Counted from the first letter of the stretch, positions 8,332 through 30,114 are shown. The stretch is 57,790 bases of DNA from Hyphomicrobiales bacterium (GCA_016744975.1 JADGDI010000005.1:1-57790); one strand, 5' to 3'. Numbers and translations are program-made. The notes: generated by a model not told the origin, from the letters alone.

Positions 8332-9198
8332 TTAAAATGTTACAGAGAGTTTTCTGAAATTTGATGGAGTAATTTGATTATTTTTTGAAAAAAACTTTGA
8401 AAAATGTGCCGTATCAATATAGCCCAAATCATATGCTATCTCAGAAATGGACATTGATGTATAACTGAGCAATCTTTTAGCCTCTAACAATGTCCGTTCA
8501 TTTATAAGCTGAGAAGCTGAAATATCCAGTATATTACGGCATACTCTATTTAAGTGGGTTGGCGTAATGTTTAAAATATTTGCATATTGCGCAACAGATA
8601 AGCGTTGTTTATACTGGTTGCTAATTTGAATTTGAAATTGACGAACTAAAACTTGTTTTTGGTTCGGTGGCGTGATCTCAGTTTTTAATTGTTCTGGAAG
8701 GTTCCTTACAACTTTTGCAATTAACAAGCCTACATGATTTTTGAGTGTAAACTCACGCAAAGGCTGGGCTTTTAAATGCTCTTCATTAATGTTTTGAAAT
8801 AGATTATCAAAAACGGAATGATTCGAACAAGCGTAAATGAACGGTGTTTGGAGATGTTCCAAAAGTACATTTTGGTTTTGTAGTAATTGTTTTAAATATA
8901 TATCAGGGATTGTCAGTACCCAACCTTCAGTGTCAGTTATAAACTTAAACCCATGCACATTTAAGGGCGGGATGCTGATAATATAGTTACCGTTAAGAGA
9001 TGTTTTATTTTTTTCAATTAACGCTGATCCACCAACGCTTTTAATATAAAAAAACTGATGCAAATTATGATGCTGATGTGGTTTAAATTTCCACCCTGTT
9101 TTTAAACTACGAGATTTAATAGATTCTATATGTAAAAAATCGGGAAATTTTTTATGATCATTTTCACCATATAAAATATAATTTGGTATCGATTTCAT
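8332..9198 (-). CDS. AraC-family transcriptional regulator (PobR/PobC-like)
   Basis: It has a C-terminal double-HTH AraC domain (..SVAQYANILNITPTHLNRVCR.., ..ISEIAYDLGYIDTAHFSKFF..). It is divergent from pobA. Confidence 0.8.
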   Translation of the reverse strand: MKSIPNYILYGENDHKKFPDFLHIESIKSRSLKTGWKFKPHQHHNLHQFFYIKSVGGSALIEKNKTSLNGNYIISIPPLNVHGFKFITDTEGWVLTIPDIYLKQLLQNQNVLLEHLQTPFIYACSNHSVFDNLFQNINEEHLKAQPLREFTLKNHVGLLIAKVVRNLPEQLKTEITPPNQKQVLVRQFQIQISNQYKQRLSVAQYANILNITPTHLNRVCRNILDISASQLINERTLLEAKRLLSYTSMSISEIAYDLGYIDTAHFSKFFSKNNQITPSNFRKLSVTF

Positions 9199-13936: not shown

Positions 13937-14941
13937 ATGATTATTGATTGTCATGGACATTACACCACAACACCATCGGCAGTGGGTGCATATAGAGATC
14001 AACAAAAACTAAATATTGCTAAGGATCCAAACTTTACTGGAGAAAAAGGCAGCATTGTTATTAGTGATGATGAAATCATAGAATCCATTGAAAATAATCA
14101 ATTAAAATTACAAAAACAACGTGGTACAGATTTAACAATTTTTTCTCCTCGTGCAAGTTGGATGGGGCATCATATTGGGAATGAGCATACAAGCAGGTTT
14201 TGGACAGAGCACCAAAATGAGCTTATAAAAAGGGTTTGTGATTTATTTCCAAATAATTTTGCGCCAGTGGCTCAGCTGCCGCAATCCTCAAATGTAGATC
14301 CCAAAAAATCAATTCCTGAATTGGTCCGTTGTGTTGAAGAAATGGGCTTTATTGGATGTAATTTAAGTCCAGATACAAGCGGTGGTTTTTGGAAAGACCC
14401 ACCACTTGCTGATCGGTCTTATTACCCTATTTATGAAAAATTGGTAGAATTAGATGTGCCTGCAATGATTCATGTTAGTGCGTGTTGTAATGATAGCTTT
14501 CATACAACAGGTTCGCATTATCTGGGCGCCGATACCGCAGCGTTTCAGCAGTTGATTATGTCTGATGTGTTTAAAGATTTCCCAACACTTAAGATTATTA
14601 TTCCACATGGCGGGGGAGCTGTGCCTTATCATTGGGGGCGTTTTAGAGGTCTAATGCAAGATCAGGGCTATGAGCCACTTGAGCGCTCGGCGCTTAAGAA
14701 TATTTATTTTGATACTTGTGTCTATCACCAACGCGGCATTGATTTATTGCTTGATATAATCCCGATAGACAATATTCTCTTTGCTTCTGAAATGATTGGT
14801 GCTGTCCGCGGAATTGACCCTGAAACTGGCTATTATTATGACGATACTAAACGGTATATCGATAATAGTAAGCTTAGTGAGCAAGATAAGTATAAGATAT
14901 TTGAAGGCAATGCACGCCGGGTATTTAGCCGCTTAAAATGA
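13937..14941 (+). CDS. ligJ: 4-oxalomesaconate hydratase
   Basis: It strongly resembles LigJ (MIIDCHGHYT.., ..FIGCNLSPD.., ..ELDVPAMIHVS.., ..IIPHGGGAVPYHWGRFRGL.., ..GAVRGIDPETGYYYDDTKRYID..). Confidence 0.88.
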   Translation: MIIDCHGHYTTTPSAVGAYRDQQKLNIAKDPNFTGEKGSIVISDDEIIESIENNQLKLQKQRGTDLTIFSPRASWMGHHIGNEHTSRFWTEHQNELIKRVCDLFPNNFAPVAQLPQSSNVDPKKSIPELVRCVEEMGFIGCNLSPDTSGGFWKDPPLADRSYYPIYEKLVELDVPAMIHVSACCNDSFHTTGSHYLGADTAAFQQLIMSDVFKDFPTLKIIIPHGGGAVPYHWGRFRGLMQDQGYEPLERSALKNIYFDTCVYHQRGIDLLLDIIPIDNILFASEMIGAVRGIDPETGYYYDDTKRYIDNSKLSEQDKYKIFEGNARRVFSRLK

Positions 14942-20628: not shown

Positions 20629-21522
20629 GTGAATTGGTTGTATTCATCAAAAGGAAAAGCTTTGGATATTCGATTTCTTGAAAGTCTTGTTGCTGTGGTT
20701 GATAATGGGTCAATCTCTGGTGCAGCAAGGGCGCAGGGCTTGACTGCTACTGCCGTAAGCCAGCGCATTCGAGCTTTAGAGCAGGAATTTGGAACAAAGC
20801 TTTTGGTGCGATCTGGCCATTCGGCACTGCCATCTAAAACCTGTCTGAACTTGCTGCCGCAGGCTAGGGGATTGATTCAGCAGAGCGCTAAACTAAAACG
20901 TGATTTTGGCAGCTCTGTTTTATCTGGGCCGTTTCGAATTGGCGCCATTGAAACTGCTTTGTTCCAATTGATACCAGCTGTGGTTAAAAACCTATCCCGT
21001 GATGCACCAAATTGTGACCTTTCGGTAATGCCGGGCACATCAATTCAACTTTATCAGATGTTAGAAAAAGACCAGATTGACCTTGCGGTGATTGTTACCC
21101 CACCTTTTGTTATTCCGAAAATCTATCATGTTGAGGAATTGGCATCACAACCTTATGTTCTGATTCAAGGCATTCAGAACGGCCCTGTTAATCAAGATGA
21201 TCTAATGAAACAACCGATAATTCTATATGACCGAAAGTCATGGGGTGGGCTTGAGGCGTGGAAATGGTTGGCTAGGCACATTGACCCCAAAAATATTCTG
21301 TGCGAGCTTGATGCGATGGGAACAATTGTGGCGATGGTCAAAAGTGGCCTGGGCATTTCTCTTTTACCAAATTGGTCGGAGCTAATGGATGATGCATCAA
21401 CACTCTCATCTATTGCTCCAATTCCGCCAATTCCTAAACGCCAGATCATTTTGCTCTGCAAAAATACGGAAAAAAACGAACCGTTATTCAAGATGGTTCG
21501 AAGTGCGTTTTTGACATTATGA
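20629..21522 (+). CDS. LysR-family transcriptional regulator
   Basis: It has an N-terminal wHTH (..SISGAARAQGLTATAVSQRIRALEQEFG..) and is divergent from the PLP enzyme gene. The start is GTG. Confidence 0.8.
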   Translation: MNWLYSSKGKALDIRFLESLVAVVDNGSISGAARAQGLTATAVSQRIRALEQEFGTKLLVRSGHSALPSKTCLNLLPQARGLIQQSAKLKRDFGSSVLSGPFRIGAIETALFQLIPAVVKNLSRDAPNCDLSVMPGTSIQLYQMLEKDQIDLAVIVTPPFVIPKIYHVEELASQPYVLIQGIQNGPVNQDDLMKQPIILYDRKSWGGLEAWKWLARHIDPKNILCELDAMGTIVAMVKSGLGISLLPNWSELMDDASTLSSIAPIPPIPKRQIILLCKNTEKNEPLFKMVRSAFLTL

Positions 21523-21671
21523 GTTGTTAGGGAAATAATATTCAACTATCTCAAACTGAGACATGTGCTTTAAACACTGAATTGAATTTATCGGCTGGGG
21601 TATGTTTTTGATTGCAAATAGGGTGAAATTTGGCCCTACTGGGTGTATAGTCTCTGAGTTTGGTGGGTTAA

Positions 21672-21694
21672 ATCTTGACAGATTCTGTCAAGAT
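21672..21694. promoter_or_regulatory. Perfect 10-3-10 palindrome ATCTTGACAG-ATT-CTGTCAAGAT, a candidate operator overlapping a TTGACA -35 box upstream of the SAM decarboxylase operon
   Basis: Read from the sequence. The core is near-identical to the one at 26814-26834. It lies 48 nt upstream of the ATG at 21742. Confidence 0.6.
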
Positions 21695-21741
21695 GCCTAT
21701 CTATATCTAAATAGAGCATTTGTTGAGGGAAATAAGACGCG

Positions 21742-22107
21742 ATGAATATTGGCAAGCATCTTATTATTGATCTTAAAACCAGCGATATGGCTGAGCGGTT
21801 AAAACTTGCTGATTTGAGTTATATCCAAAAAATTTTGCTGGATTCAGCAGAAGCAGCTGGCGCAACGGTTTTAAAAATAGAAGGTCATAAGTTTGGTGAT
21901 AAAGCTGGCGTAACTGCTTTTGCAATGCTTGCAGAAAGCCATATTTCAGTACATACTTGGCCAGAAAATGGCTTTGCGGCATTTGATATATTTATGTGCG
22001 GTGATGCGGGGGAGCAGCTTGAAAAGTCGGTTTATGTTATTCAACAAGAATTTTTAATGGCAACACTTAGTAAGCAGCTTATAGAGCGTGACTATTCGGG
22101 GGAGTAG
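21742..22107 (+). CDS. speH: Pyruvoyl-dependent S-adenosylmethionine decarboxylase proenzyme (small SpeH/SpeD type)
   Basis: It is 121 aa. It carries the hallmark self-processing and active-site stretch ..LAESHISVHTWPE.. and a downstream ..DIFMCG... Confidence 0.8.
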   Translation: MNIGKHLIIDLKTSDMAERLKLADLSYIQKILLDSAEAAGATVLKIEGHKFGDKAGVTAFAMLAESHISVHTWPENGFAAFDIFMCGDAGEQLEKSVYVIQQEFLMATLSKQLIERDYSGE

Positions 22108-23196
22108 ATGTTTAATTTACTATATATGTTTAGAAAACGACGATATTTTAGAAGTTTATTCGTTGTTTCTGCGACTACAAAAATATTGATATTATTATTC
22201 ATTTGCCTATTTAGTCTGCATGTTTTGGCGATGATGTTGTTTGAAGGATGGACGCTTGAGGTTGCTTTATGGTTTACAGTAACCGCAGGTACTACCGTTG
22301 GATTTGGTGATTATGCACCCGCCACTGGTTTGGGACGATTGGCAACGGTGTTTTTGATTTATGTGCCTGCCATTCCGACCATTGCATTTTTAACGGGGCG
22401 TCTGGTTGATAAAATTGTTGGGCGGCGCGAGCGCAAACTTAAAGGGAATTGGAATTGGAAAATGGTTGATCACATTGTTTTTATTAATTATCCAAATATT
22501 GGTGGTGATATATTCTTTAGGCGGATTGTTGAAGAGCTTAAAAATTCGGTCAGTATGACGGAACAAAAAATTATTATTATTACAGATAAAAAACCCGATG
22601 GACTCCCGCAAAGCCTTGTTGACTTGAATGTGAAATTGGTTTCTGGTCGCCCTAATAGCGAGGCCTCACTGGTGCGTGCAGCGGTCGATAATGCTCAAAA
22701 GGTAGTTATTTTATGTGAAGATATTAGCGATAGTCGCAGCGATTCTTTGGTGTTTGACATTGCCTCATTAATCTATCAATCAAATAATGATAAAAAGCCA
22801 GAATTGGTGGCTGAGGCGATTTTGGAAACTACAAAAACGCGGCTTCAGTCGCTTGGTGTTGCAAGCATATTGCGGCCAATTCGGGCTTATCCTGAGTTGA
22901 TTGCGCGAACGATTATCTCTCCTGGTTCGGAGCAGATTATAGAAAGCCTGTTTGATAGTGATAAAGAAGAATGTTTAAAATTTACCTGTCATTTTAATGG
23001 GCTTTGGTCGGAACTTGCGACCAAGATTATATTGGCTGATTTTGGCACTCCGATTGCGGTTGAGCTCGAAGATGGTTCGATCCGCGCTAATTTAAGAAGC
23101 AATGATATAATTGCTACAAAGTCGGTATTTATCATCGTGCCAGAAGGCAATAATTTGGTGCCAGAAGCGGATCAGGAACTAAATTCTCTAATTTAA
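22108..23196 (+). CDS. Two-TM K+ channel with a cytoplasmic RCK (TrkA-N/TrkA-C-like) domain
   Basis: It has the selectivity-filter signature TTVGFGD between two hydrophobic helices and a C-terminal RCK-like region with a degenerate glycine motif (HIVFINYPNIGGD). Its ATG directly abuts the speH stop (TAGATG). Confidence 0.75.
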   Translation: MFNLLYMFRKRRYFRSLFVVSATTKILILLFICLFSLHVLAMMLFEGWTLEVALWFTVTAGTTVGFGDYAPATGLGRLATVFLIYVPAIPTIAFLTGRLVDKIVGRRERKLKGNWNWKMVDHIVFINYPNIGGDIFFRRIVEELKNSVSMTEQKIIIITDKKPDGLPQSLVDLNVKLVSGRPNSEASLVRAAVDNAQKVVILCEDISDSRSDSLVFDIASLIYQSNNDKKPELVAEAILETTKTRLQSLGVASILRPIRAYPELIARTIISPGSEQIIESLFDSDKEECLKFTCHFNGLWSELATKIILADFGTPIAVELEDGSIRANLRSNDIIATKSVFIIVPEGNNLVPEADQELNSLI

Positions 23197-23217
23197 AAGC
23201 TAAGAAAGAGAGGTATT

Positions 23218-24135
23218 ATGATTATAAGAAATGCAATTCTCGGATTATTTGCCCTAGTGTTATTGGGTGGTTGTTCGGACCCAAATGCGCCAATTATCGC
23301 CAATGAAAGCAAAATTGTGCAATTGCAAATTGACGGGCTTAAGCAAGGTTTATCGGCAGGGACACTGGTAAACGCGGTGATTTTGAAATCCTATATTGAT
23401 AAAACTATGGTTTCAAACCCAGAATATAAAGATATTTTAAGCAGTTTGGCTGTTCAGTATACGGCTAAAAATGGCAATCTTGTATCATTGGAAAAACGCC
23501 TTGCAAATATTGGTGACGTTAAGCAAAGTTCCGATGCCGTTGCGGATTTGGAAAATTTAAAACTGGCCTCAAGTAAAGATATTTTTAACCAAACCTTTAT
23601 GGATGAAATTAACACTGTTGCAGCGCTTAGTAATGGCGCATTGCAGCCACTTAATTTGTCAGAAAATGAGCCTGTGGTTGCTGGCCAGAATTTGGTTGGT
23701 AACCCGACTTATGGTAGGTGGCAGTCGTCAAGTGGTGGGTCTTTTTGGGCTTGGTATGGGCAATATGCGTTTTTCTCGAGTTTATTCAGGCCACCATTTT
23801 ATAATAGTTGGTATTATAACCGACCTTGGAGTTACGGCTATGACCGTTACAATAACAATTATGGATCACGCAGTTGGAAAAATAGTGAAACCCAAACACT
23901 TGATAAAAATTATAAAAAAGTGCGTGAATATGGCAAGGTGAATAATAAAAAACCAAGTGCCTATGCGACAAGAACAAATGGCAAAGTGAAAGCAACCGCC
24001 ACAGGTAAGGGCTCTTCTTTATCGTCAGTTCGCAAAACGACTGCAAAGCTTGGGCCGTCGGCACGTAAAAGCTCACCATATTCATCAAGCAGCCGTAGTG
24101 GCAACCGCAGCCGTAGCAGCCGCGGTGGAAAATAA
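23218..24135 (+). CDS. Lipoprotein of unknown function with an aromatic-rich segment and a Ser/Arg/Lys-rich tail
   Basis: It has a signal peptide with a lipobox (..LLGGCSD..) and a W/Y-rich stretch (..FWAWYGQYAFFSSLFRPPFYNSWYYNRPWSYGYDRYNNNYG..). Its tail reads ..SSSRSGNRSRSSRGGK. The RBS is AGAGAGG. Confidence 0.6.
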   Translation: MIIRNAILGLFALVLLGGCSDPNAPIIANESKIVQLQIDGLKQGLSAGTLVNAVILKSYIDKTMVSNPEYKDILSSLAVQYTAKNGNLVSLEKRLANIGDVKQSSDAVADLENLKLASSKDIFNQTFMDEINTVAALSNGALQPLNLSENEPVVAGQNLVGNPTYGRWQSSSGGSFWAWYGQYAFFSSLFRPPFYNSWYYNRPWSYGYDRYNNNYGSRSWKNSETQTLDKNYKKVREYGKVNNKKPSAYATRTNGKVKATATGKGSSLSSVRKTTAKLGPSARKSSPYSSSSRSGNRSRSSRGGK

Positions 24136-24155
24136 TTAGATTATCGGAGATTAAA

Positions 24156-25055
24156 ATGGAATTTTTAAACACATATTTTGGACTTAGCAGCGATTATCTT
24201 TTGGTGCTTGGTGTAAATTTAGTCATTACCGCGCTGGTGTTAATTGCGATTAGGGTTGTCATTGGGATGATATCCAATGTTAAAATGATTGATGGTTTAT
24301 CGCTTGAGGATAACCCTGCTATGGGCATCTCGTTGGCGGGCATTATTTTTGCCGTTGGTATTATTATGACGGGGGTGATTGGTGGTGACGCGTCGGATGA
24401 CTTAATCAAAGAGATTGTCTTGGTTGCTGTGTCAGGTGTGATTGGCATTGTTTTGGTGTTTTCATCGCGGGTGATATTTGATAAAATATCAATTCCCGGG
24501 TTTAAAATGCGCGATGCGATTATGCAGGGTAATATTGCGGTTTCAGTCATTGATGCGGGCAATGTGATTGCCTCTGCTTTGATTATTAAATCAGTATTTT
24601 TAGTGATTGATACGACTACAACTAATCTGATTATCATTGGATTGGGCAGTTTTATTGTCTCACAATTATTGCTGACTATTGCTAGCTATTACCGCATATT
24701 CTTTTACAACCGTGCCCATGGCAGAAGCCTTCAAGATAACATAATGAAGGGTAATGTTGCATTGGCATTGCGTTTTGCGGGTTTTAGAATTGGTATGGCA
24801 TTTGCCATTAGCGGGGCGTTAACATTGGCACCTTTAAGCATGGATATATTTGCATTAAGCTTATTGATTTGGTTGGGTGTAAGTTTGGTTCAAATGTTGT
24901 TGGTGGTTATCTTTAGTTTGATTTGTGACAAGATATTATTGTTGGGCATTGATACCCGTGACGAAGTTGACAATAAACAAAATATTGCTGTTGGTGCAAC
25001 ACAGGCAGCCCTTACGGCTGTTATTGGTTTGATTATTTTCACGCTTGTTTCGTAG
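24156..25055 (+). CDS. Polytopic membrane protein with four DUF350 (YjfL)-like repeats
   Basis: There are four internal repeats of the pattern x-N-[PIV]-A-[MVL]-x(4)-A/G-x..: DNPAMGISLAG, QGNIAVSVIDAG, KGNVALALRFAG and KQNIAVGATQAA. Each is followed by a hydrophobic helix, and the pattern resembles the E. coli YjfL repeats. Confidence 0.55.
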   Translation: MEFLNTYFGLSSDYLLVLGVNLVITALVLIAIRVVIGMISNVKMIDGLSLEDNPAMGISLAGIIFAVGIIMTGVIGGDASDDLIKEIVLVAVSGVIGIVLVFSSRVIFDKISIPGFKMRDAIMQGNIAVSVIDAGNVIASALIIKSVFLVIDTTTTNLIIIGLGSFIVSQLLLTIASYYRIFFYNRAHGRSLQDNIMKGNVALALRFAGFRIGMAFAISGALTLAPLSMDIFALSLLIWLGVSLVQMLLVVIFSLICDKILLLGIDTRDEVDNKQNIAVGATQAALTAVIGLIIFTLVS

Positions 25056-25082
25056 GCATTTTGACATTGAACAAAGCAAGAG

Positions 25083-26807
25083 ATGAATATGGTGGATGGA
25101 TTGCAGGAAAAAAGCAGTTTCAAGCTTACGACGTTTTTTATTGATGTAAGCTTGATTAGCATTCTTGCTGTATTGGCTGGTTGCGGCATTGTTTATGAGT
25201 ATTTATTATCGCATTATGCAGGGCGTGTGCTTGGGCTAATGGAACATGCCATTTTTACCATGATTGGGGTGATGATTGTTTCGATGGGCGTTGGTGCGCT
25301 GCTAGCAAATAAAATTAAAGATGCCAATAAAGGCTTTGTAATTATTGAATTATTGATTGCGTTTATTGGCTCTATATCGATTATTCTAATTGCCTGGCTC
25401 ATTGCTTTTACCAATCAATTCCCTAGTATATTGGCCGAGAATTATGGCATGCCTGAGGATTTAATTCCTGTTGGTGGTGCTATTGCAAGGCTTAAACAAT
25501 TTGCCGAAATATTCCCCTTTATAGTTGGGTTTATTTTGGGGGCTTTGGTTGGCATGGAAATTCCGCTGATTGCTAGAATTAGAGAAGAGATTTATGCGGT
25601 ACGTCTTAAACATAATACTGGCACGGTTTATGGGGCTGATTATATAGGGGCGGGGGTTGGAGCAGCTATATTCATTGTGTTTTTATTAGCCATAGCACCT
25701 GCAAAGGCCGCTTTATGGGTATCCTCGGTGAATATGATTGTTGGATTTATATTTTTAGCCGTTAGGTGGCGCAAAATATCGAATAACATTATCTTGGCGG
25801 GTTTGCACATATTTTTGGCGGTGTTTTTATTTTTGTTGATGCAAAATATTACTAATATTCACCAATCGCTTGAAAATACACTTTATAAAGATGAAGTGGT
25901 GTTTAGCCAAAATACTGACTTTCAGCATATCACCCTGACCAAGCGCCAAATTGGCAATGCAGCGCCTATTCATACGTTATATTTAAATGGTAGGTCGCAA
26001 TTTTGTTCCTGTGATGAAGCGCTTTATCATGCCATGTTGGTGACGCCGTCAATGTTGGCCTCGGCAAGGCATAAGAATATTTTACTGATTGGCGGTGGTG
26101 ATGGGCTTGCCGTTCGGGATATTTTAAAATGGCAGCCAGAGCAAATTGATGTTTTAGAGTTAGACCAAAAAATGGTGTCGCTGTTCTCAAAGCCGATTAA
26201 AGTTGATGGGCAAGTTGTTAATGATGCATTATTGGCACTAAATGAAAATTCATTTTCTGATAAACGGGTGAATGTGATTTATGGTGATGCGTTTAACAGT
26301 GTTGAGCAACTGATTGCTCGGGGTGAAAATTATGATGTGATTATTGTTGATTTGCCCGACCCATCGCACCCTGACTTAAATAAATTATATTCCAAGCAAT
26401 TTTATACCAAAGTGAAATTATTATTAGCTGGGGATGGCGCGATTGCCATTCAGTCGACCAGCCCTTACCATGCCAAGGACGCGTTTTTAACCGTTGGGCT
26501 GACATTGCGCGCTGCTGGTTTTGGATTTGTTGAGCGATATCATACCAATATACCGACATTTGGTGAATGGGGATGGAGCATTGCAACCTTGCATGGTCAG
26601 GCTGCATCGAGCCGAATTGAACGTGATTTTAAGCCCATTCCCAAACAAATTGCAATTGATCAGGATTTTATTTTGGCGAGTTTTAAATTTGCCAATGGGA
26701 TTATTGAAAGTGAAAAGCATTTAAGTTACAATAGTATAGATAATAATTTAATGTATTTATTGCATGAGAAGTCATGGTTGAATGAAGAAATTTTAGTTGG
26801 AAATTAA
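25083..26807 (+). CDS. Membrane-anchored polyamine aminopropyltransferase (spermidine/spermine synthase-like)
   Basis: The N-terminal ~260 aa are multi-pass hydrophobic. The C-terminal domain carries aminopropyltransferase motifs (..ILLIGGGDGLAVRDILKW.., ..VIIVDLPDPSHPDLNKLYSKQFY..). Confidence 0.8.
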   Translation: MNMVDGLQEKSSFKLTTFFIDVSLISILAVLAGCGIVYEYLLSHYAGRVLGLMEHAIFTMIGVMIVSMGVGALLANKIKDANKGFVIIELLIAFIGSISIILIAWLIAFTNQFPSILAENYGMPEDLIPVGGAIARLKQFAEIFPFIVGFILGALVGMEIPLIARIREEIYAVRLKHNTGTVYGADYIGAGVGAAIFIVFLLAIAPAKAALWVSSVNMIVGFIFLAVRWRKISNNIILAGLHIFLAVFLFLLMQNITNIHQSLENTLYKDEVVFSQNTDFQHITLTKRQIGNAAPIHTLYLNGRSQFCSCDEALYHAMLVTPSMLASARHKNILLIGGGDGLAVRDILKWQPEQIDVLELDQKMVSLFSKPIKVDGQVVNDALLALNENSFSDKRVNVIYGDAFNSVEQLIARGENYDVIIVDLPDPSHPDLNKLYSKQFYTKVKLLLAGDGAIAIQSTSPYHAKDAFLTVGLTLRAAGFGFVERYHTNIPTFGEWGWSIATLHGQAASSRIERDFKPIPKQIAIDQDFILASFKFANGIIESEKHLSYNSIDNNLMYLLHEKSWLNEEILVGN

Positions 26808-26813
26808 ACTCAG

Positions 26814-26834
26814 GCTTGACAGATCCTGTCAAGC
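26814..26834. promoter_or_regulatory. Perfect 9-3-9 palindrome GCTTGACAG-ATC-CTGTCAAGC, the second copy of the candidate operator, upstream of the yjfI/pspA-like operon
   Basis: Read from the sequence. It lies 6 nt after the aminopropyltransferase stop and 36 nt before the ATG at 26871. It contains TTGACA, and TATATAAT follows downstream. Confidence 0.6.
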
Positions 26835-26870
26835 GCCCATATATAATATATGACGAAAAGGAGACGGAAT

Positions 26871-27278
26871 ATGTCAAATAAGCTTCTAGCTCAATTAGAG
26901 CTAATTGAGCAGGGTAAAATGGTCATTGAATTTGAATTGCAACCGATGGCTAATAATGATGAAATTATTCAGGTGATTGTAAAAGATCAGGAAGAATTTC
27001 CGATTAATATTACTGAAACCGATGGTGAAATGATTTGCATGGTCAAATTATTTGATGCCGAAGAGCTAAAAGATGGTGCTAGCAATGACATGCATGAAGT
27101 GATGTTATCGGCCAATTTGGCTTTGCCACTATCGAGCTTTGGCAAGATTGGCGGTACATATATGTTGTTTGGTGCTTTGTCGGCCAACTCGAAGAGCGAA
27201 AGTATTGGCATAGAGATTGAAACCTTAGCAGGCAACACATTAGAAGCCATTGGCTTAGTTGCAGATTATTTGAAATAG
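26871..27278 (+). CDS. Small acidic cytoplasmic protein, YjfI-like (DUF2170-type). Assigned mainly by size and position upstream of the PspA-family gene.
   Basis: It is 135 aa, the ATG is preceded by AAGGAG, and it lies immediately upstream of the PspA/IM30 gene, as in E. coli yjfI-yjfJ. I cannot verify sequence-level family membership without an HMM search. Confidence 0.45.
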   Translation: MSNKLLAQLELIEQGKMVIEFELQPMANNDEIIQVIVKDQEEFPINITETDGEMICMVKLFDAEELKDGASNDMHEVMLSANLALPLSSFGKIGGTYMLFGALSANSKSESIGIEIETLAGNTLEAIGLVADYLK

Positions 27279-27287
27279 GAGATGAAA

Positions 27288-27980
27288 ATGAGTATCTTTT
27301 CTAAAATTGTAACCGCAATTCGCGGTGGTGCTAGTGAAGTTGGCGAAGGCATTGTGGATGCAAATCTAGTGCGCATTATGGATCAAGAGATTAGAGATTC
27401 TAAAGCGGCGGTGGAAAAAGCCCGTTCTGGACTTGCTGACCTGATGGCTGAAGAAGCTGGCTATCAACGCAAAGCAACTGAACTTCAAGACAAAATTGAA
27501 GAATATGAAGGTTATGCTGTGCAAGCATTGGACAAAGGTGATGAGCCTCTTGCGATTGAAATAGCCGAGAAAATTGCCGATTTAAGTGGTGAGCTTGACT
27601 ATAATACAGGCGCAACCACACAACTTAGCAATAGCATTGCCACCCAAAAGGATTTTTTGCGCAACTCTGAGCGGAAAGTGAAAGATTTTGAACGTGAAGC
27701 TAAAATGGTAAAAACGACAGAAACAGTACAGAAAACGACAGCTGCACTTAGCTCGAACTTTACCGCTACTGGCTCTAAAATGAACAATGCGCGCCAATCG
27801 CTTGAACGGGTTAAAGCGCGCCAGCAACAAAATGCCGACCGTTTAAAAGCTGGTGAAGCACTTGCTGCTGAATCTACAGGTAGTAACCTAGCGGCTAAGC
27901 TTGCAAACTCTGGCATTACTAAAAACTCTGGCCAAGCAAGTGATATTTTAGCAAAACTAAAAGCCAAACAAGAGAAATAG
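27288..27980 (+). CDS. PspA/IM30-family protein (YjfJ-like)
   Basis: It is a long coiled-coil protein whose N-terminus (MSIFSKIVTAIRGGASEVGEGIVDANLVRIMDQEIRD..) aligns by eye with E. coli PspA (MGIFSRFADIV..KLVRLMIQEMED..). Its C-terminus ..ILAKLKAKQ.. matches the PspA ..LAQLKAKM... Confidence 0.8.
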   Translation: MSIFSKIVTAIRGGASEVGEGIVDANLVRIMDQEIRDSKAAVEKARSGLADLMAEEAGYQRKATELQDKIEEYEGYAVQALDKGDEPLAIEIAEKIADLSGELDYNTGATTQLSNSIATQKDFLRNSERKVKDFEREAKMVKTTETVQKTTAALSSNFTATGSKMNNARQSLERVKARQQQNADRLKAGEALAAESTGSNLAAKLANSGITKNSGQASDILAKLKAKQEK

Positions 27981-27988
27981 GCAACAGC

Positions 27989-28618
27989 ATGTTTTCAAAA
28001 TTATTTGGTAAAGATAAGAAGGCCGCTCGGCCTTCTTTAAACCACCCTAAAGATTTGCGGGCTGGGGATTTGTTTGAGCTTGGCTTATGCCCAATTTCGG
28101 AAATTAGTGGCAAGACATTTACCATTTTAGAAGCCAATACGCTTGATTATGGTGATGGGCTTGAGATTGCTTTTGTCATTAGCGCAGATCGCCAAAAATA
28201 TGGCCTGTCGGTTATCTCAGATGATGAAGGCGAGCGCTTGAGTTTTTCTAAGCTTATCGGCCATAGTGAAATTGACCAGCTGTTTGGTTTGGACAGTTTT
28301 GCCAGTTTATTTGATGATGATATGGGTGGTGGTTTAGCCATTCAAACAATTTCAGCTGCGCTTAGTGACTGGGCGATTGAAGGTGATTATTTTAGGACGG
28401 TTGATGCGCTTAAGGGGTATTTTGAAAAAGGCGACCATCGGTTAAATTTAAATAGCAAGCGAGCGGCTGAGTTTGACTATTACCAATTGGTTGGTGCAAA
28501 TTCAGACTATTCTATTGAGGTTGAGGTTTATGATGGTGATGAAACAGAGGTTTATATTTGCCGTAATTTACCCATGCATACGATAGATAAATTATGGCCG
28601 CAAGATGCTAGTGGTTAA
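27989..28618 (+). CDS. YjfK-like (DUF2491-type) protein, function unknown
   Basis: It is 209 aa and lies directly downstream of the PspA-family gene, as in E. coli yjfJ-yjfK. It is acidic with a DxDxD-rich segment. The family assignment is not verified. Confidence 0.4.
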   Translation: MFSKLFGKDKKAARPSLNHPKDLRAGDLFELGLCPISEISGKTFTILEANTLDYGDGLEIAFVISADRQKYGLSVISDDEGERLSFSKLIGHSEIDQLFGLDSFASLFDDDMGGGLAIQTISAALSDWAIEGDYFRTVDALKGYFEKGDHRLNLNSKRAAEFDYYQLVGANSDYSIEVEVYDGDETEVYICRNLPMHTIDKLWPQDASG

Positions 28619-28629
28619 ATGGTGGTTTC

Positions 28630-28947
28630 ATGAAATTATCGGATAAATTATCAAAAAAACTAGAAAAAGTGACGGCTGTTTCGATTGCGATTGATTTAAG
28701 CGAAAAAATGGGGCGTCGGTTGCGTGTGGAGGCGGCGCTTGAAGGCATGTCGCCACAAGATCAGTTGCGAAAAATGGTTGGCTTGTCATTTAAAAAACCG
28801 CAAAGGCCACGTGTTACTTTAAGTTTGCGGGAAGAGGATTACATATTGCTTGCCAAACGTTATAAGATTAACTCTTGTAATAAAAACGATATTAAAAAGC
28901 GTGTTATGGAAGAAATATCAAAGACTTTACATGATCAAGCTTGTTAG
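28630..28947 (+). CDS. Small protein with two ribbon-helix-helix-like repeats (candidate DNA-binding regulator)
   Basis: It has two segments with an RHH-like pattern: ..VSIAIDLSEKMGRRLRVEAALEGMSPQDQLRKMVG.. and ..RVTLSLREEDYILLAKRYKINSCNKNDIKKRVMEEI... It starts 11 nt after the previous stop. Confidence 0.4.
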   Translation: MKLSDKLSKKLEKVTAVSIAIDLSEKMGRRLRVEAALEGMSPQDQLRKMVGLSFKKPQRPRVTLSLREEDYILLAKRYKINSCNKNDIKKRVMEEISKTLHDQAC

Positions 28948-29172
28948 AGCTTTTAGATTGACATATATGTCTACGCATTCATCTGGGTTATATAGCATTG
29001 GATTTTATAATCTAAGGTGAAAGTGTTTTAATCGTTTTGGGTTTTGATAAATAACCGTTTAAAAGAGAATGTGGCGTGATAAGAAAACAGGATACAAGTA
29101 GCTTTGTATTTTGTATTCATAGTTTTTCAACTTATTTGGATTATTTTATTTGATGAGAAAATAGGAATATTC

Positions 29173-30114
29173 ATGCCGACTGATATAAATAAAACTCAAA
29201 CACATAAGCCATTAAATGATGAACACATAACTTTGCTTGAAAGGGTAAAGTCTTGGATATCTTCTGATAGCAATTATTTGTTAACGGATAAGCATATTGG
29301 TGATAAAGCGGGCTCTCATTCAATTCATATAGATTCTACGCATCACCCGCTTAACTATTGGCCGCAAGAGCGTATTGATGTTCTAAATATTTTGTGGGGT
29401 ATTGGTAATCGATTGCCCGGCAATGATGCCTTTAACAGAAAAATATTTGAGACAGCGGCTTTAGACAGTAAATCACGTGTGTTGGATGTTGCCGTTGGTT
29501 TTGGCGCAGGTGCTAGGATGATTGCCAAAGAAAATTTCTCCAAGGTTGATGTTATTGAGAATTATGTAGAAATACTACCGTATTTGATGAAGTTAACTTC
29601 TGAAAATAAGCTGATGCATTTTATTTCTGTATTGAACGGAAATTTATTAGAAGCAAATATTCCTAAGGCAAGATATGATTTGGTTTATGGGCGTGAAGTG
29701 TTCTTTAAAATTAAAAATAAACAAAATGCTATAAAAAAATGTGTTAATGGCCTTAAAAATAATGGCAAATTTATTTTTACAGATTTTGTTTTAACCGATG
29801 ATGCATCTGCATATGGCTCGTTTGAAAATTGGTCTGAGCGAGAAAGACAGTCTGTATACCCTGTTTCGTTACATGATTATAATAATATAATGCATGGACT
29901 TGGGTTAAAAATTGCGCCTGTACAAGATTATTCTCAAATATACATAAAACATGTTAATGCTGGGTGGTTAAGGTTGCGCAGTTATGTGCGCGGCGAAAAA
30001 ATTGATGAGGATTTTGTCAACATCATGGCGCTTGAAGGTGATTTATGGCTTTCTCGAGTGCGCGCACTTCGAAGTGGGAAGTTGAAATTAATTCGGTTCA
30101 GTGTTTCTTTGTAA
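29173..30114 (+). CDS. Class I SAM-dependent methyltransferase, substrate unknown
   Basis: It has motif I (..VLDVAVGFGAGARMIA..) and a post-I/II pattern (..YDLVYGREVFF.., ..LKNNGKFIFTDF..). I prefer the ATG at 29173. The TTG at 29104 would add a hydrophobic 23-aa leader. Confidence 0.7.
   Translation: MPTDINKTQTHKPLNDEHITLLERVKSWISSDSNYLLTDKHIGDKAGSHSIHIDSTHHPLNYWPQERIDVLNILWGIGNRLPGNDAFNRKIFETAALDSKSRVLDVAVGFGAGARMIAKENFSKVDVIENYVEILPYLMKLTSENKLMHFISVLNGNLLEANIPKARYDLVYGREVFFKIKNKQNAIKKCVNGLKNNGKFIFTDFVLTDDASAYGSFENWSERERQSVYPVSLHDYNNIMHGLGLKIAPVQDYSQIYIKHVNAGWLRLRSYVRGEKIDEDFVNIMALEGDLWLSRVRALRSGKLKLIRFSVSL

Follow-up and report, generated by a model that had tools for sequence, protein, structure and literature searches.

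The polyamine/K+-channel/PspA gene block of this Hyphomicrobiales genome carries two perfect palindromes, one ahead of each of its two predicted transcription units, which raises the question whether these palindromes are operators and, if so, which protein binds them. According to a sequence-only reading of the window (the whole stretch of 57,790 nucleotides analysed here), a dimeric protein bound at both palindromes would occlude RNA polymerase and unite the two units in one regulon, the candidate regulators being the ribbon-helix-helix (RHH)-like product of a small gene and a neighbouring LysR-type protein. The features under consideration are as follows.

20629-21522: LysR regulator (HTH_1; Pfam)
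21672-21694, no strand: palindrome 1, candidate operator of the AdoMet-decarboxylase operon; conserved 13-bp core GACAGATTCTGTC at 21677-21689
21675-21680, + strand: -35 hexamer TTGACA of promoter 1; GACA common to the hexamer and the left half-site
21698-21703, + strand: candidate -10 TATCTA of promoter 1; 17-bp spacer; TG at 21694-21695
21742-26807, + strand: predicted upstream transcription unit, AdoMet_dc to Spermine_synth
21742-22107, + strand: AdoMet_dc (Pfam)
22108-23196, + strand: K+ channel, Ion_trans_2/RCK (Pfam)
23218-24135, + strand: 305-aa protein, no Pfam match; by position, the lipoprotein gene of the published operon
24156-25055, + strand: membrane protein with two DUF350 domains (Pfam)
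25083-26807, + strand: membrane-anchored Spermine_synth (Pfam)
26814-26834, no strand: palindrome 2, candidate operator of the DUF2170-PspA-DUF4178-RHH genes; conserved 13-bp core GACAGATCCTGTC at 26818-26830
26816-26821, + strand: -35 hexamer TTGACA of the internal promoter (sequence read directly)
within 26838-26847, + strand: candidate -10s CATATA, TATATA and TATAAT; TATATA at 18 bp, TATAAT at 20 bp
26863-26875, no strand: possible weak second site GACGGAATATGTC, one mismatch from GACA-N5-TGTC
26871-28618, + strand: predicted downstream transcription unit up to the RHH gene, DUF2170-PspA-209-aa protein
26871-27278, + strand: DUF2170/YjfI (CesT/Tir-like; Pfam)
27282-27980, + strand: PspA/IM30 (Pfam)
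27989-28618, + strand: 209-aa protein, no Pfam match, in the DUF4178 position (Pfam, gene order)
28630-28947, + strand: 105-aa protein with two RHH-like units, no Pfam match, last gene of the block, proposed repressor

Palindromes and predicted promoters of the gene block

Both palindromes, read directly from the sequence, lie at the positions reported earlier: copy 1 reads ATCTTGACAG-ATT-CTGTCAAGAT (21672-21694), a perfect 10-3-10 palindrome, and copy 2 reads GCTTGACAG-ATC-CTGTCAAGC (26814-26834), a perfect 9-3-9 palindrome, with the 19-bp cores CTTGACAGATTCTGTCAAG at 21674-21692 and CTTGACAGATCCTGTCAAG at 26815-26833, respectively. The distances from their ends to the start codons are also as previously given, 48 nt to the AdoMet_dc ATG (21742) for copy 1 and 36 nt to the DUF2170 ATG (26871) for copy 2. 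With up to three mismatches allowed, the 19-bp core has just two matches in the 57.8 kb against 0.02 expected from shuffled sequences, none of which reached the observed count, in agreement with the earlier statement that such a pair is not plausibly due to chance. Each left arm contains the -35 hexamer TTGACA, as had been claimed. The accompanying claim of -10-like sequences 17-20 nt downstream stands in part: candidates do exist at 17, 18 and 20 bp, but the hexamers are imperfect, and a consensus scanner calls neither promoter, since neither hexamer found at a spacing of 16-18 bp ends in the consensus T.

Two other promoter types were considered and rejected. For a sigma-54/PspF-type psp promoter, no match to TGGCAC-N5-TTGC with up to two mismatches is found in either intergenic region (21523-21741 and 26808-26870). 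A MerR-type promoter would have its dyad in the middle of a spacer of 19-20 bp and a MerR gene nearby; here, the dyad begins one base ahead of the -35 hexamer and is centred approximately 9 bp into the promoter, the conserved spacing to the -10 element is 16-18 bp, and Pfam identifies no MerR gene in the block. A perfect sigma-54 consensus, TGGCACTCCGATTGC, is present at 23043-23057 within the gene for the K+ channel, at a distance of 160 nt from the following gene; as it lies in coding sequence (D-F-G-T-P-I-A-V-E) and is absent from the related loci L083 and L089, we regard it as a coding coincidence.

In a collection-wide scan, the exact 19-mer CTTGACAGNNNCTGTCAAG occurs in about 80 unrelated genomes, which is about the chance level for 16 fixed bases, and no relatives of the window are among the matches listed. 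At least 13 Streptococcus genomes, far more than of any other genus, are among the 80 matches listed (L001, L003, L012, L022, L023, L031, L036, L038, L061, L062, L069, L071, L075); the Streptococcus sequence is probably an unrelated conserved site.

Conservation of the site in close and distant relatives

A search with the 105-aa protein yielded a first family of 14 sequences, all at least 58% identical and all from Emcibacter-like marine MAGs. A scan with the single DUF2170 protein returned two close loci, one 598-bp Aquicoccus fragment and distant Pseudomonas loci, a scan with the RHH alignment of the close relatives gave matches in only two species genomes, and an exact-protein lookup of the window PspA returned no record. 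The contigs carrying relatives of the 105-aa protein and the two loci found via DUF2170 share one nine-gene block whose order does not change, the gene order of the upstream unit being repeated in L083, L089, L092, L094, L095, and L096, and the last gene (101-105 aa) is present in every orthologous block. Palindrome 1 is kept at the same position in L083, L089, L092, L095, and L096, and palindrome 2, in L082, L083, L089, L092, L094, and L097, so that in these relatives both sites persist though the surrounding intergenic DNA has diverged and the neighbouring genes differ. TTGACA and the inner TGTC are invariant among the Emcibacter-like relatives, the TTGACA upstream of speD being kept in L083, L089, and L092 (spacing and -10-like hexamers read by hand), and the right outer arm drifts (CTGTCAAG, CTGTCATG, CTGTCGTG, CTGTCGTT). 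Upstream of AdoMet_dc in L094 (approximately 1215-1240), the palindrome is replaced by CTTGACATCAAG (in the context TTGACTTGACATCAAGG), i.e., CTTGACA/TCAAG, the 19-bp palindrome minus its central 7 bp; the site upstream of DUF2170 in the same locus is intact.

The genes upstream of the block in the relatives encode a Sel1-repeat protein, TPR/sulfotransferase proteins, an aldehyde ferredoxin oxidoreductase (AFOR), or DUF4345 and TetR proteins. The flanks differ in every genome examined, which suggests that the block moves as a unit. In L094, a tRNA-like gene (identified by eye) directly follows the RHH gene, at approximately 8600-8680.

These comparisons bear on the proposal that the LysR-type protein binds the palindromes. 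Its gene (20629-21522) lies 150 bp upstream of palindrome 1, it has the LysR-family helix-turn-helix (HTH_1), and LysR proteins do bind dyads. However, the gene adjoins the cluster in the window alone among the blocks compared, the relatives keeping the sites with other genes at that place, and its nomination as a candidate regulator is therefore unsupported. Moreover, it is divergently paired, at a distance of 41 bp, with a class-V aminotransferase gene, such divergent pairs being the usual arrangement of a LysR regulator and its target, and the dyad gives G-N11-C or T-N13-A rather than a T-N11-A box. We thus consider control by this protein extremely unlikely.

More distant loci were reached via the spermine synthase. 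In the Shewanella acanthi locus found with its homologue, the gene next to the DUF4178-like one encodes a 109-aa homologue of the window protein; GACATATTATGTC precedes the first gene, and cTTGACATATTATGTC and GACATAATATGTC precede DUF2170. Scanning species genomes with the spermine-synthase alignment gave 497 confirmed loci; 80 of them, spanning Alpha-, Gamma-, and Zetaproteobacteria, were kept for analysis. Nine gene families were mapped onto them by phmmer, and GACA-N5-TGTC was then searched for. It has 139 matches in the 1.34 Mb of the 80 loci versus about 20 expected at equal base frequencies, nearly all of them being GACATAWTATGTC. The sites lie upstream of DUF2170, usually as a pair with a spacing of 15, 17-18 or 34-36 bp, and, with the gene order of Shewanella and Colwellia, also upstream of the first operon gene. 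The sequence-only reading had named the case in which its own claim would fail, namely, that the motif is a common dispersed repeat; this is not so, because only a handful of the 139 matches fall outside regulatory positions. The conserved unit among the relatives comprises the inner 13 bp (GACA-N5-TGTC) and the TTGACA hexamer, and the outer bases that extend the window palindromes to 19-23 bp are not conserved across them. The window palindromes are a local variant of the 13-bp site GACATAWTATGTC common to the same promoters across many proteobacteria.

In ten loci from Methylococcales, Thiotrichaceae, Chromatiales, and other gammaproteobacterial MAGs (L111, L114, L119, L121, L122, L124, L126, L127, L129, L130), the gene order is permuted, with the K+ channel, lipoprotein, and DUF350 genes placed after the RHH gene, not before the spermine synthase; here, the sites are found solely upstream of DUF2170, as two copies 17-18 bp apart. 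An extra perfect GACATAATATGTC occurs in L119 at 14154-14166, between a Peptidase_M50B-like gene and one for a 227-aa membrane protein, which starts 40 nt downstream of it. In some gammaproteobacteria, additional membrane proteins may belong to the regulon.

The same data address the reading that the palindromes arose by chance around two strong -35 hexamers and bind no regulator. TTGACA indeed supplies six of the nine bases of each left arm; yet the right arm (CTGTC or ATGTC) is conserved across the three classes though it has no promoter role, the second copies without TTGACA are equally conserved, and the two window matches stand against an expectation close to zero, as given above. This reading has a negligible probability.

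The position of the sites relative to promoter elements is conserved as well. With the regions anchored on the first site upstream of DUF2170, TTGACA is present at that site in 46 of 53 loci, and in the remaining ones the second site, 15 bp downstream, bears cTTGACA or a close variant. In most loci, a -10-like hexamer follows TTGACA at 16-18 bp, conserved in position and imperfect in sequence. In Shewanella, the -10 element is TGcTATCTT and the second operator is centred approximately 34-36 bp after the first, just past the likely start; Colwellia has TGcTAAATT and the same operator layout. Where the two sites lie 17-18 bp apart (Methylococcales, Thiotrichaceae, Chromatiales, and unclassified gammaproteobacterial MAGs), the -10 element TATTAT lies inside the second operator, and in the Emcibacter group a GACA-N5-TGTC 42-45 bp downstream spans the Shine-Dalgarno sequence and the start codon. 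Operators arranged in this way, one having four bases in common with the -35 element and another lying on the -10 element or the start, are standard where a repressor acts by occlusion, and the direction of regulation is thus presumably negative.

In the window itself, the candidate second site GACGGAATATGTC, 45 bp centre-to-centre from palindrome 2, overlaps both the Shine-Dalgarno sequence (GGAG) and the start codon of DUF2170. It may represent a genuine weak second operator, or it may have arisen by coincidence where GGAGAC, from the ribosome-binding site, is followed by the Met-Ser codons ATG-TCA; a strict GACA-N5-TGTC is found 42-45 bp from site 1 in L083, L089, L092, L094, and L097. Another sequence, TTGACATATATGTC at 28958-28971, is located between the RHH gene, 12 nt past its stop codon, and a methyltransferase ORF (29104-30114). 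It resembles the family operator GACAT..ATGTC minus one central base, again fused to TTGACA; in L083, L089, L092, L094, and L097, the RHH gene is not followed by such a site.

Alternatively, the palindromes could act at the RNA level, as stem-loops involved in processing, stability, or attenuation. If transcribed, the window copies would fold into hairpins of considerable stability (-12.6 and -13.5 kcal/mol), copy 2 starts 7 nt past the Spermine_synth stop (26807), within a possible read-through transcript, and symmetric changes of the arms would preserve base pairing too. In most lineages, however, the fold computed for a single site is weak (-3.4 to -4.9 kcal/mol), and what is conserved is the sequence, including the central AWT, not the pairing alone. 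Sites that lie on the -35 hexamer of a promoter, as copy 1 and the first-gene sites do, would be absent from its transcripts. Half-site changes are uncompensated in L089 (GACAT-ATT-CTGTC) and in L083 (CTGTCGT arms), and therefore a protein-binding site fits better than an RNA stem. An intrinsic terminator (a GC-rich stem and a T-run) was rejected in its own right, since no terminator-like site is called at either palindrome and the bases that follow, ATGCCTATC and GCGCCCATA, contain no T-run. Altogether, a role as RNA elements is very unlikely, and the sites are, with high probability, protein operators.

The small RHH-like protein and its link to the site

Presence of the site follows presence of the small gene at the end of the block. 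Where this gene is present, the site upstream of DUF2170 is found in 47 of 51 loci (48 if L109 is included, where a mis-set ORF boundary hides it), and two copies are found in 42 of the 51. In loci having DUF2170-PspA-DUF4178 without the small gene, the site is present in one of the ten assessable ones, and in those lacking the DUF2170-PspA dyad, in one out of 18, this one being a truncated contig. The association between the site and the gene has Fisher p = 4e-7, a value that is descriptive only, as it is not corrected for shared ancestry by a phylogenetic procedure. The three gene-bearing loci without a strict match all carry near-matches: the variant operator GCCATAATATGGC occurs twice at 9680-9735 of L175 (a Sedimenticola MAG), CCCATAWTATGTC occurs twice in L117, and L147 has three copies with one or two mismatches each.

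The operator variants, GCCATAATATGGC in L175 and GACAG..CTGTC in the window lineage, change symmetrically on both arms, as expected for a binder with two-fold symmetry, and comparison of the protein alignment with the half-sites shows that residues 18 and 67 covary with base 5 of the half-site. Gln at window position 18 combined with Ser, Asn, Ala, Thr, Lys, or Gly at position 67 is accompanied by GACAT in every such lineage; the Emcibacter group, with Ser18 and Arg67, has GACAG, in some members with T, A, or C at base 5; and L175, with the divergent strands KLQMHFS and RIGLSFN, has the half-site GCCAT. Residues 18 and 67 occupy alternate positions of two predicted beta-strands, and their side chains would face the DNA, as in RHH proteins. 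The two independent protein/operator switches are suggestive of recognition by the small protein. Thus, of the two regulators proposed from the sequence, it is the RHH-like protein that gains backing, both from its co-occurrence and from its covariation with the site.

The sites could instead be bound by a regulator encoded elsewhere. In favour of this, the zetaproteobacterial locus L107 retains a single GACAT-N3-ATGTC between the spermine synthase and DUF2170 (9700) without an RHH gene, and L105, also zetaproteobacterial, has a single GACAT-N3-ATGTC (9679) and no visible RHH gene, though its contig may end too early to show one; the related Mariprofundus locus L110 has the RHH gene and two sites. 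Besides, each genome was seen in part, and the RHH fold assignment is below threshold. On the other hand, presence of the site closely tracks the small gene, the operator variants track the strand residues of its product, and no other DNA-binding gene is conserved beside the block. Hence, we regard an unlinked regulator as unlikely, and prefer the small protein as the binder.

The fold of this protein has to be judged from partial matches. Pfam gives no match for the window protein at E <= 0.01, its score against RHH_10 being 15.2 bits versus the cut-off of 27. Among 24 homologues, the sub-threshold matches are mostly to RHH families, none of them at the curated cut-off: FitA-like_RHH (four members, best 0.0021), NikA-like (two, best 3.3e-5), RHH_1 (two), RHH_10 (two), and Antitox_RHH (one). 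The wider family comprises 208 clusters at E <= 0.001, and some Pseudoalteromonas homologues are named "ribbon-helix-helix protein, CopG" in database entries. Two AlphaFold models (pLDDT 78 and 76, pTM 0.4) place helices at 25-37, 42-49, 68-78, and 85-104, with an extended segment before each helix pair, in which DSSP calls no strand; the strands are unpaired and the relative orientation of the two halves is undefined, and a deeper alignment did not improve the model, leaving the strands unpaired. Local Foldseek superpositions at 0.8-2 Å over 33-37 residues involve Arc, CopG, FitA, NikA, PutA, and VapB, and weak whole-chain matches include AvtR and single-chain Arc, all with E >= 0.8; searches of PDB sequences with RHH profiles returned nothing significant. 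As a profile comparison of the N- and C-terminal halves detects no significant internal repeat, a tandem RHH layout is proposed from predicted secondary structure and motifs. In the alignments, a G-x-S/T/N turn between the helices is found in both units of most homologues, with G(M/L/V)SP(Q/S)D ahead of helix B in unit 1 and YG(L/I/V)(S/D/N) ahead of helix B in unit 2, where the window protein has RYKINS. Together with the published annotation of the homologous last gene as an RHH transcription factor (PMC11237479), all this is weakly indicative of, and consistent with, two ribbon-helix-helix units.

Proposed mechanism and relation to known systems

Taking these observations together, we consider it probable that the product of the last gene (28630-28947) is an autoregulated RHH repressor that occludes two sigma-70-type promoters. 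Each palindrome would be an operator overlapping the -35 element of such a promoter, promoter 1 serving the genes from speD to the spermine synthase, and the internal promoter, the DUF2170-PspA-DUF4178-RHH genes. The binder would be the 105-aa protein, each chain of which has two RHH-like units. In a pair of chains, or in some other assembly of equivalent symmetry, each partner would recognise the GACAG half-site on its side of the dyad. The bound protein would block RNA polymerase at the -35 element, so that the polyamine/channel operon would be repressed together with the regulator's own operon, the latter by negative autoregulation. Binding itself, repression, and stoichiometry are what we infer from the comparisons. 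The original idea of a dimeric protein on both palindromes that occludes RNA polymerase and joins the operons in one regulon thus receives comparative support, the sites being conserved and lying on the -35 hexamers. Since the RHH protein of the block has no ligand-binding domain, release from the operators could be controlled by partner proteins of its own operon, through partner switching with the DUF2170 chaperone, PspA, or DUF4178; this extension is speculative and rather doubtful.

The operon and its terminal RHH gene are already in the literature. A comparative PSP study describes an operon type comprising genes for a lipoprotein, YjfL/DUF350, a membrane spermine synthase, a CesT/Tir-like DUF2170 protein, PspA, and DUF4178 (PMC11237479), exemplified by SO_3765/SO_3766 of Shewanella oneidensis (Ravi et al., 2024, mSystems, PMC11237479), and states that its final gene is sometimes an RHH transcription factor. 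Gene content and order, including the terminal RHH gene, are shared with the window block, which adds AdoMet_dc and the K+ channel at the front and has two predicted promoters and the variant half-site GACAG in place of GACAT; the Shewanella loci that we fetched carry the homologous small gene and the sites. No operator, promoter, or regulon is described in the term-matched passages of PMC11237479 and its supplement. A literature search with the operator sequence and the Shewanella locus tags gave nothing relevant, and within the partial coverage of the literature searched we found neither the operator nor the two-promoter architecture, the cross-class conservation, or the protein/site covariation.

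The mechanism, a small autoregulated repressor on its own promoter, is of an ordinary kind. Small RHH autorepressors of the MetJ/Arc/CopG superfamily, such as CopG of pMV158, Arc of P22, and MetJ, are short proteins that read DNA with beta-strands, are autoregulated within their own operon, and bind short inverted repeats with half-sites approximately 8 bp apart that overlap the promoter. The predicted system resembles them in the short protein with its putative beta-strand reading of DNA, in the promoter-overlapping short inverted repeats with a half-site distance of approximately 8 bp, and in the proposed autoregulation of the gene within its own operon. Unlike CopG, Arc, and MetJ, the window protein has two RHH-like units per chain and no Pfam RHH match at threshold, and its predicted target is a chromosomal membrane-stress/polyamine cluster rather than a plasmid, phage, or toxin-antitoxin module. 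AvtR (PDB:4hv0), which we take to be a viral regulator with two RHH motifs in one polypeptide, would on that assumption share the tandem layout; its similarity to the window protein, a weak whole-chain fold match over about 90 residues and a weak sequence match with E = 0.44, is not significant, and its host (it belongs to an archaeal virus) and targets are unrelated to the system considered here.

The classical pspABCDE operon is controlled by PspF and sigma-54. Like the PspF system, the window system is predicted to control transcription of a PspA-family gene, and a feedback loop is plausible; unlike it, the window system has no sigma-54 -24/-12 elements in the intergenic regions and no enhancer-binding protein, and its promoters look sigma-70-type.

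As the number of confirmed loci in a single species-genome scan indicates, the DUF2170-PspA-spermine-synthase operon is widespread, and so far it has been described by comparative genomics alone. The 13-bp operator, the two promoters, and the candidate repressor provide an experimental handle on this uncharacterised membrane-stress/polyamine module, for instance through reporter fusions or de-repressed mutants, and a means of looking for the conditions under which repression is relieved. The natural variants GACAT, GACAG, and GCCAT, together with the strand substitutions, form a small test case for base recognition by RHH proteins. Should the doubtful idea of partner switching be true, it would represent a sigma-54-independent analogue of the PspA-PspF feedback loop, by which membrane or polyamine status would act on the transcription of a polyamine/K+-channel/PspA module that hundreds of marine and sediment proteobacteria possess.
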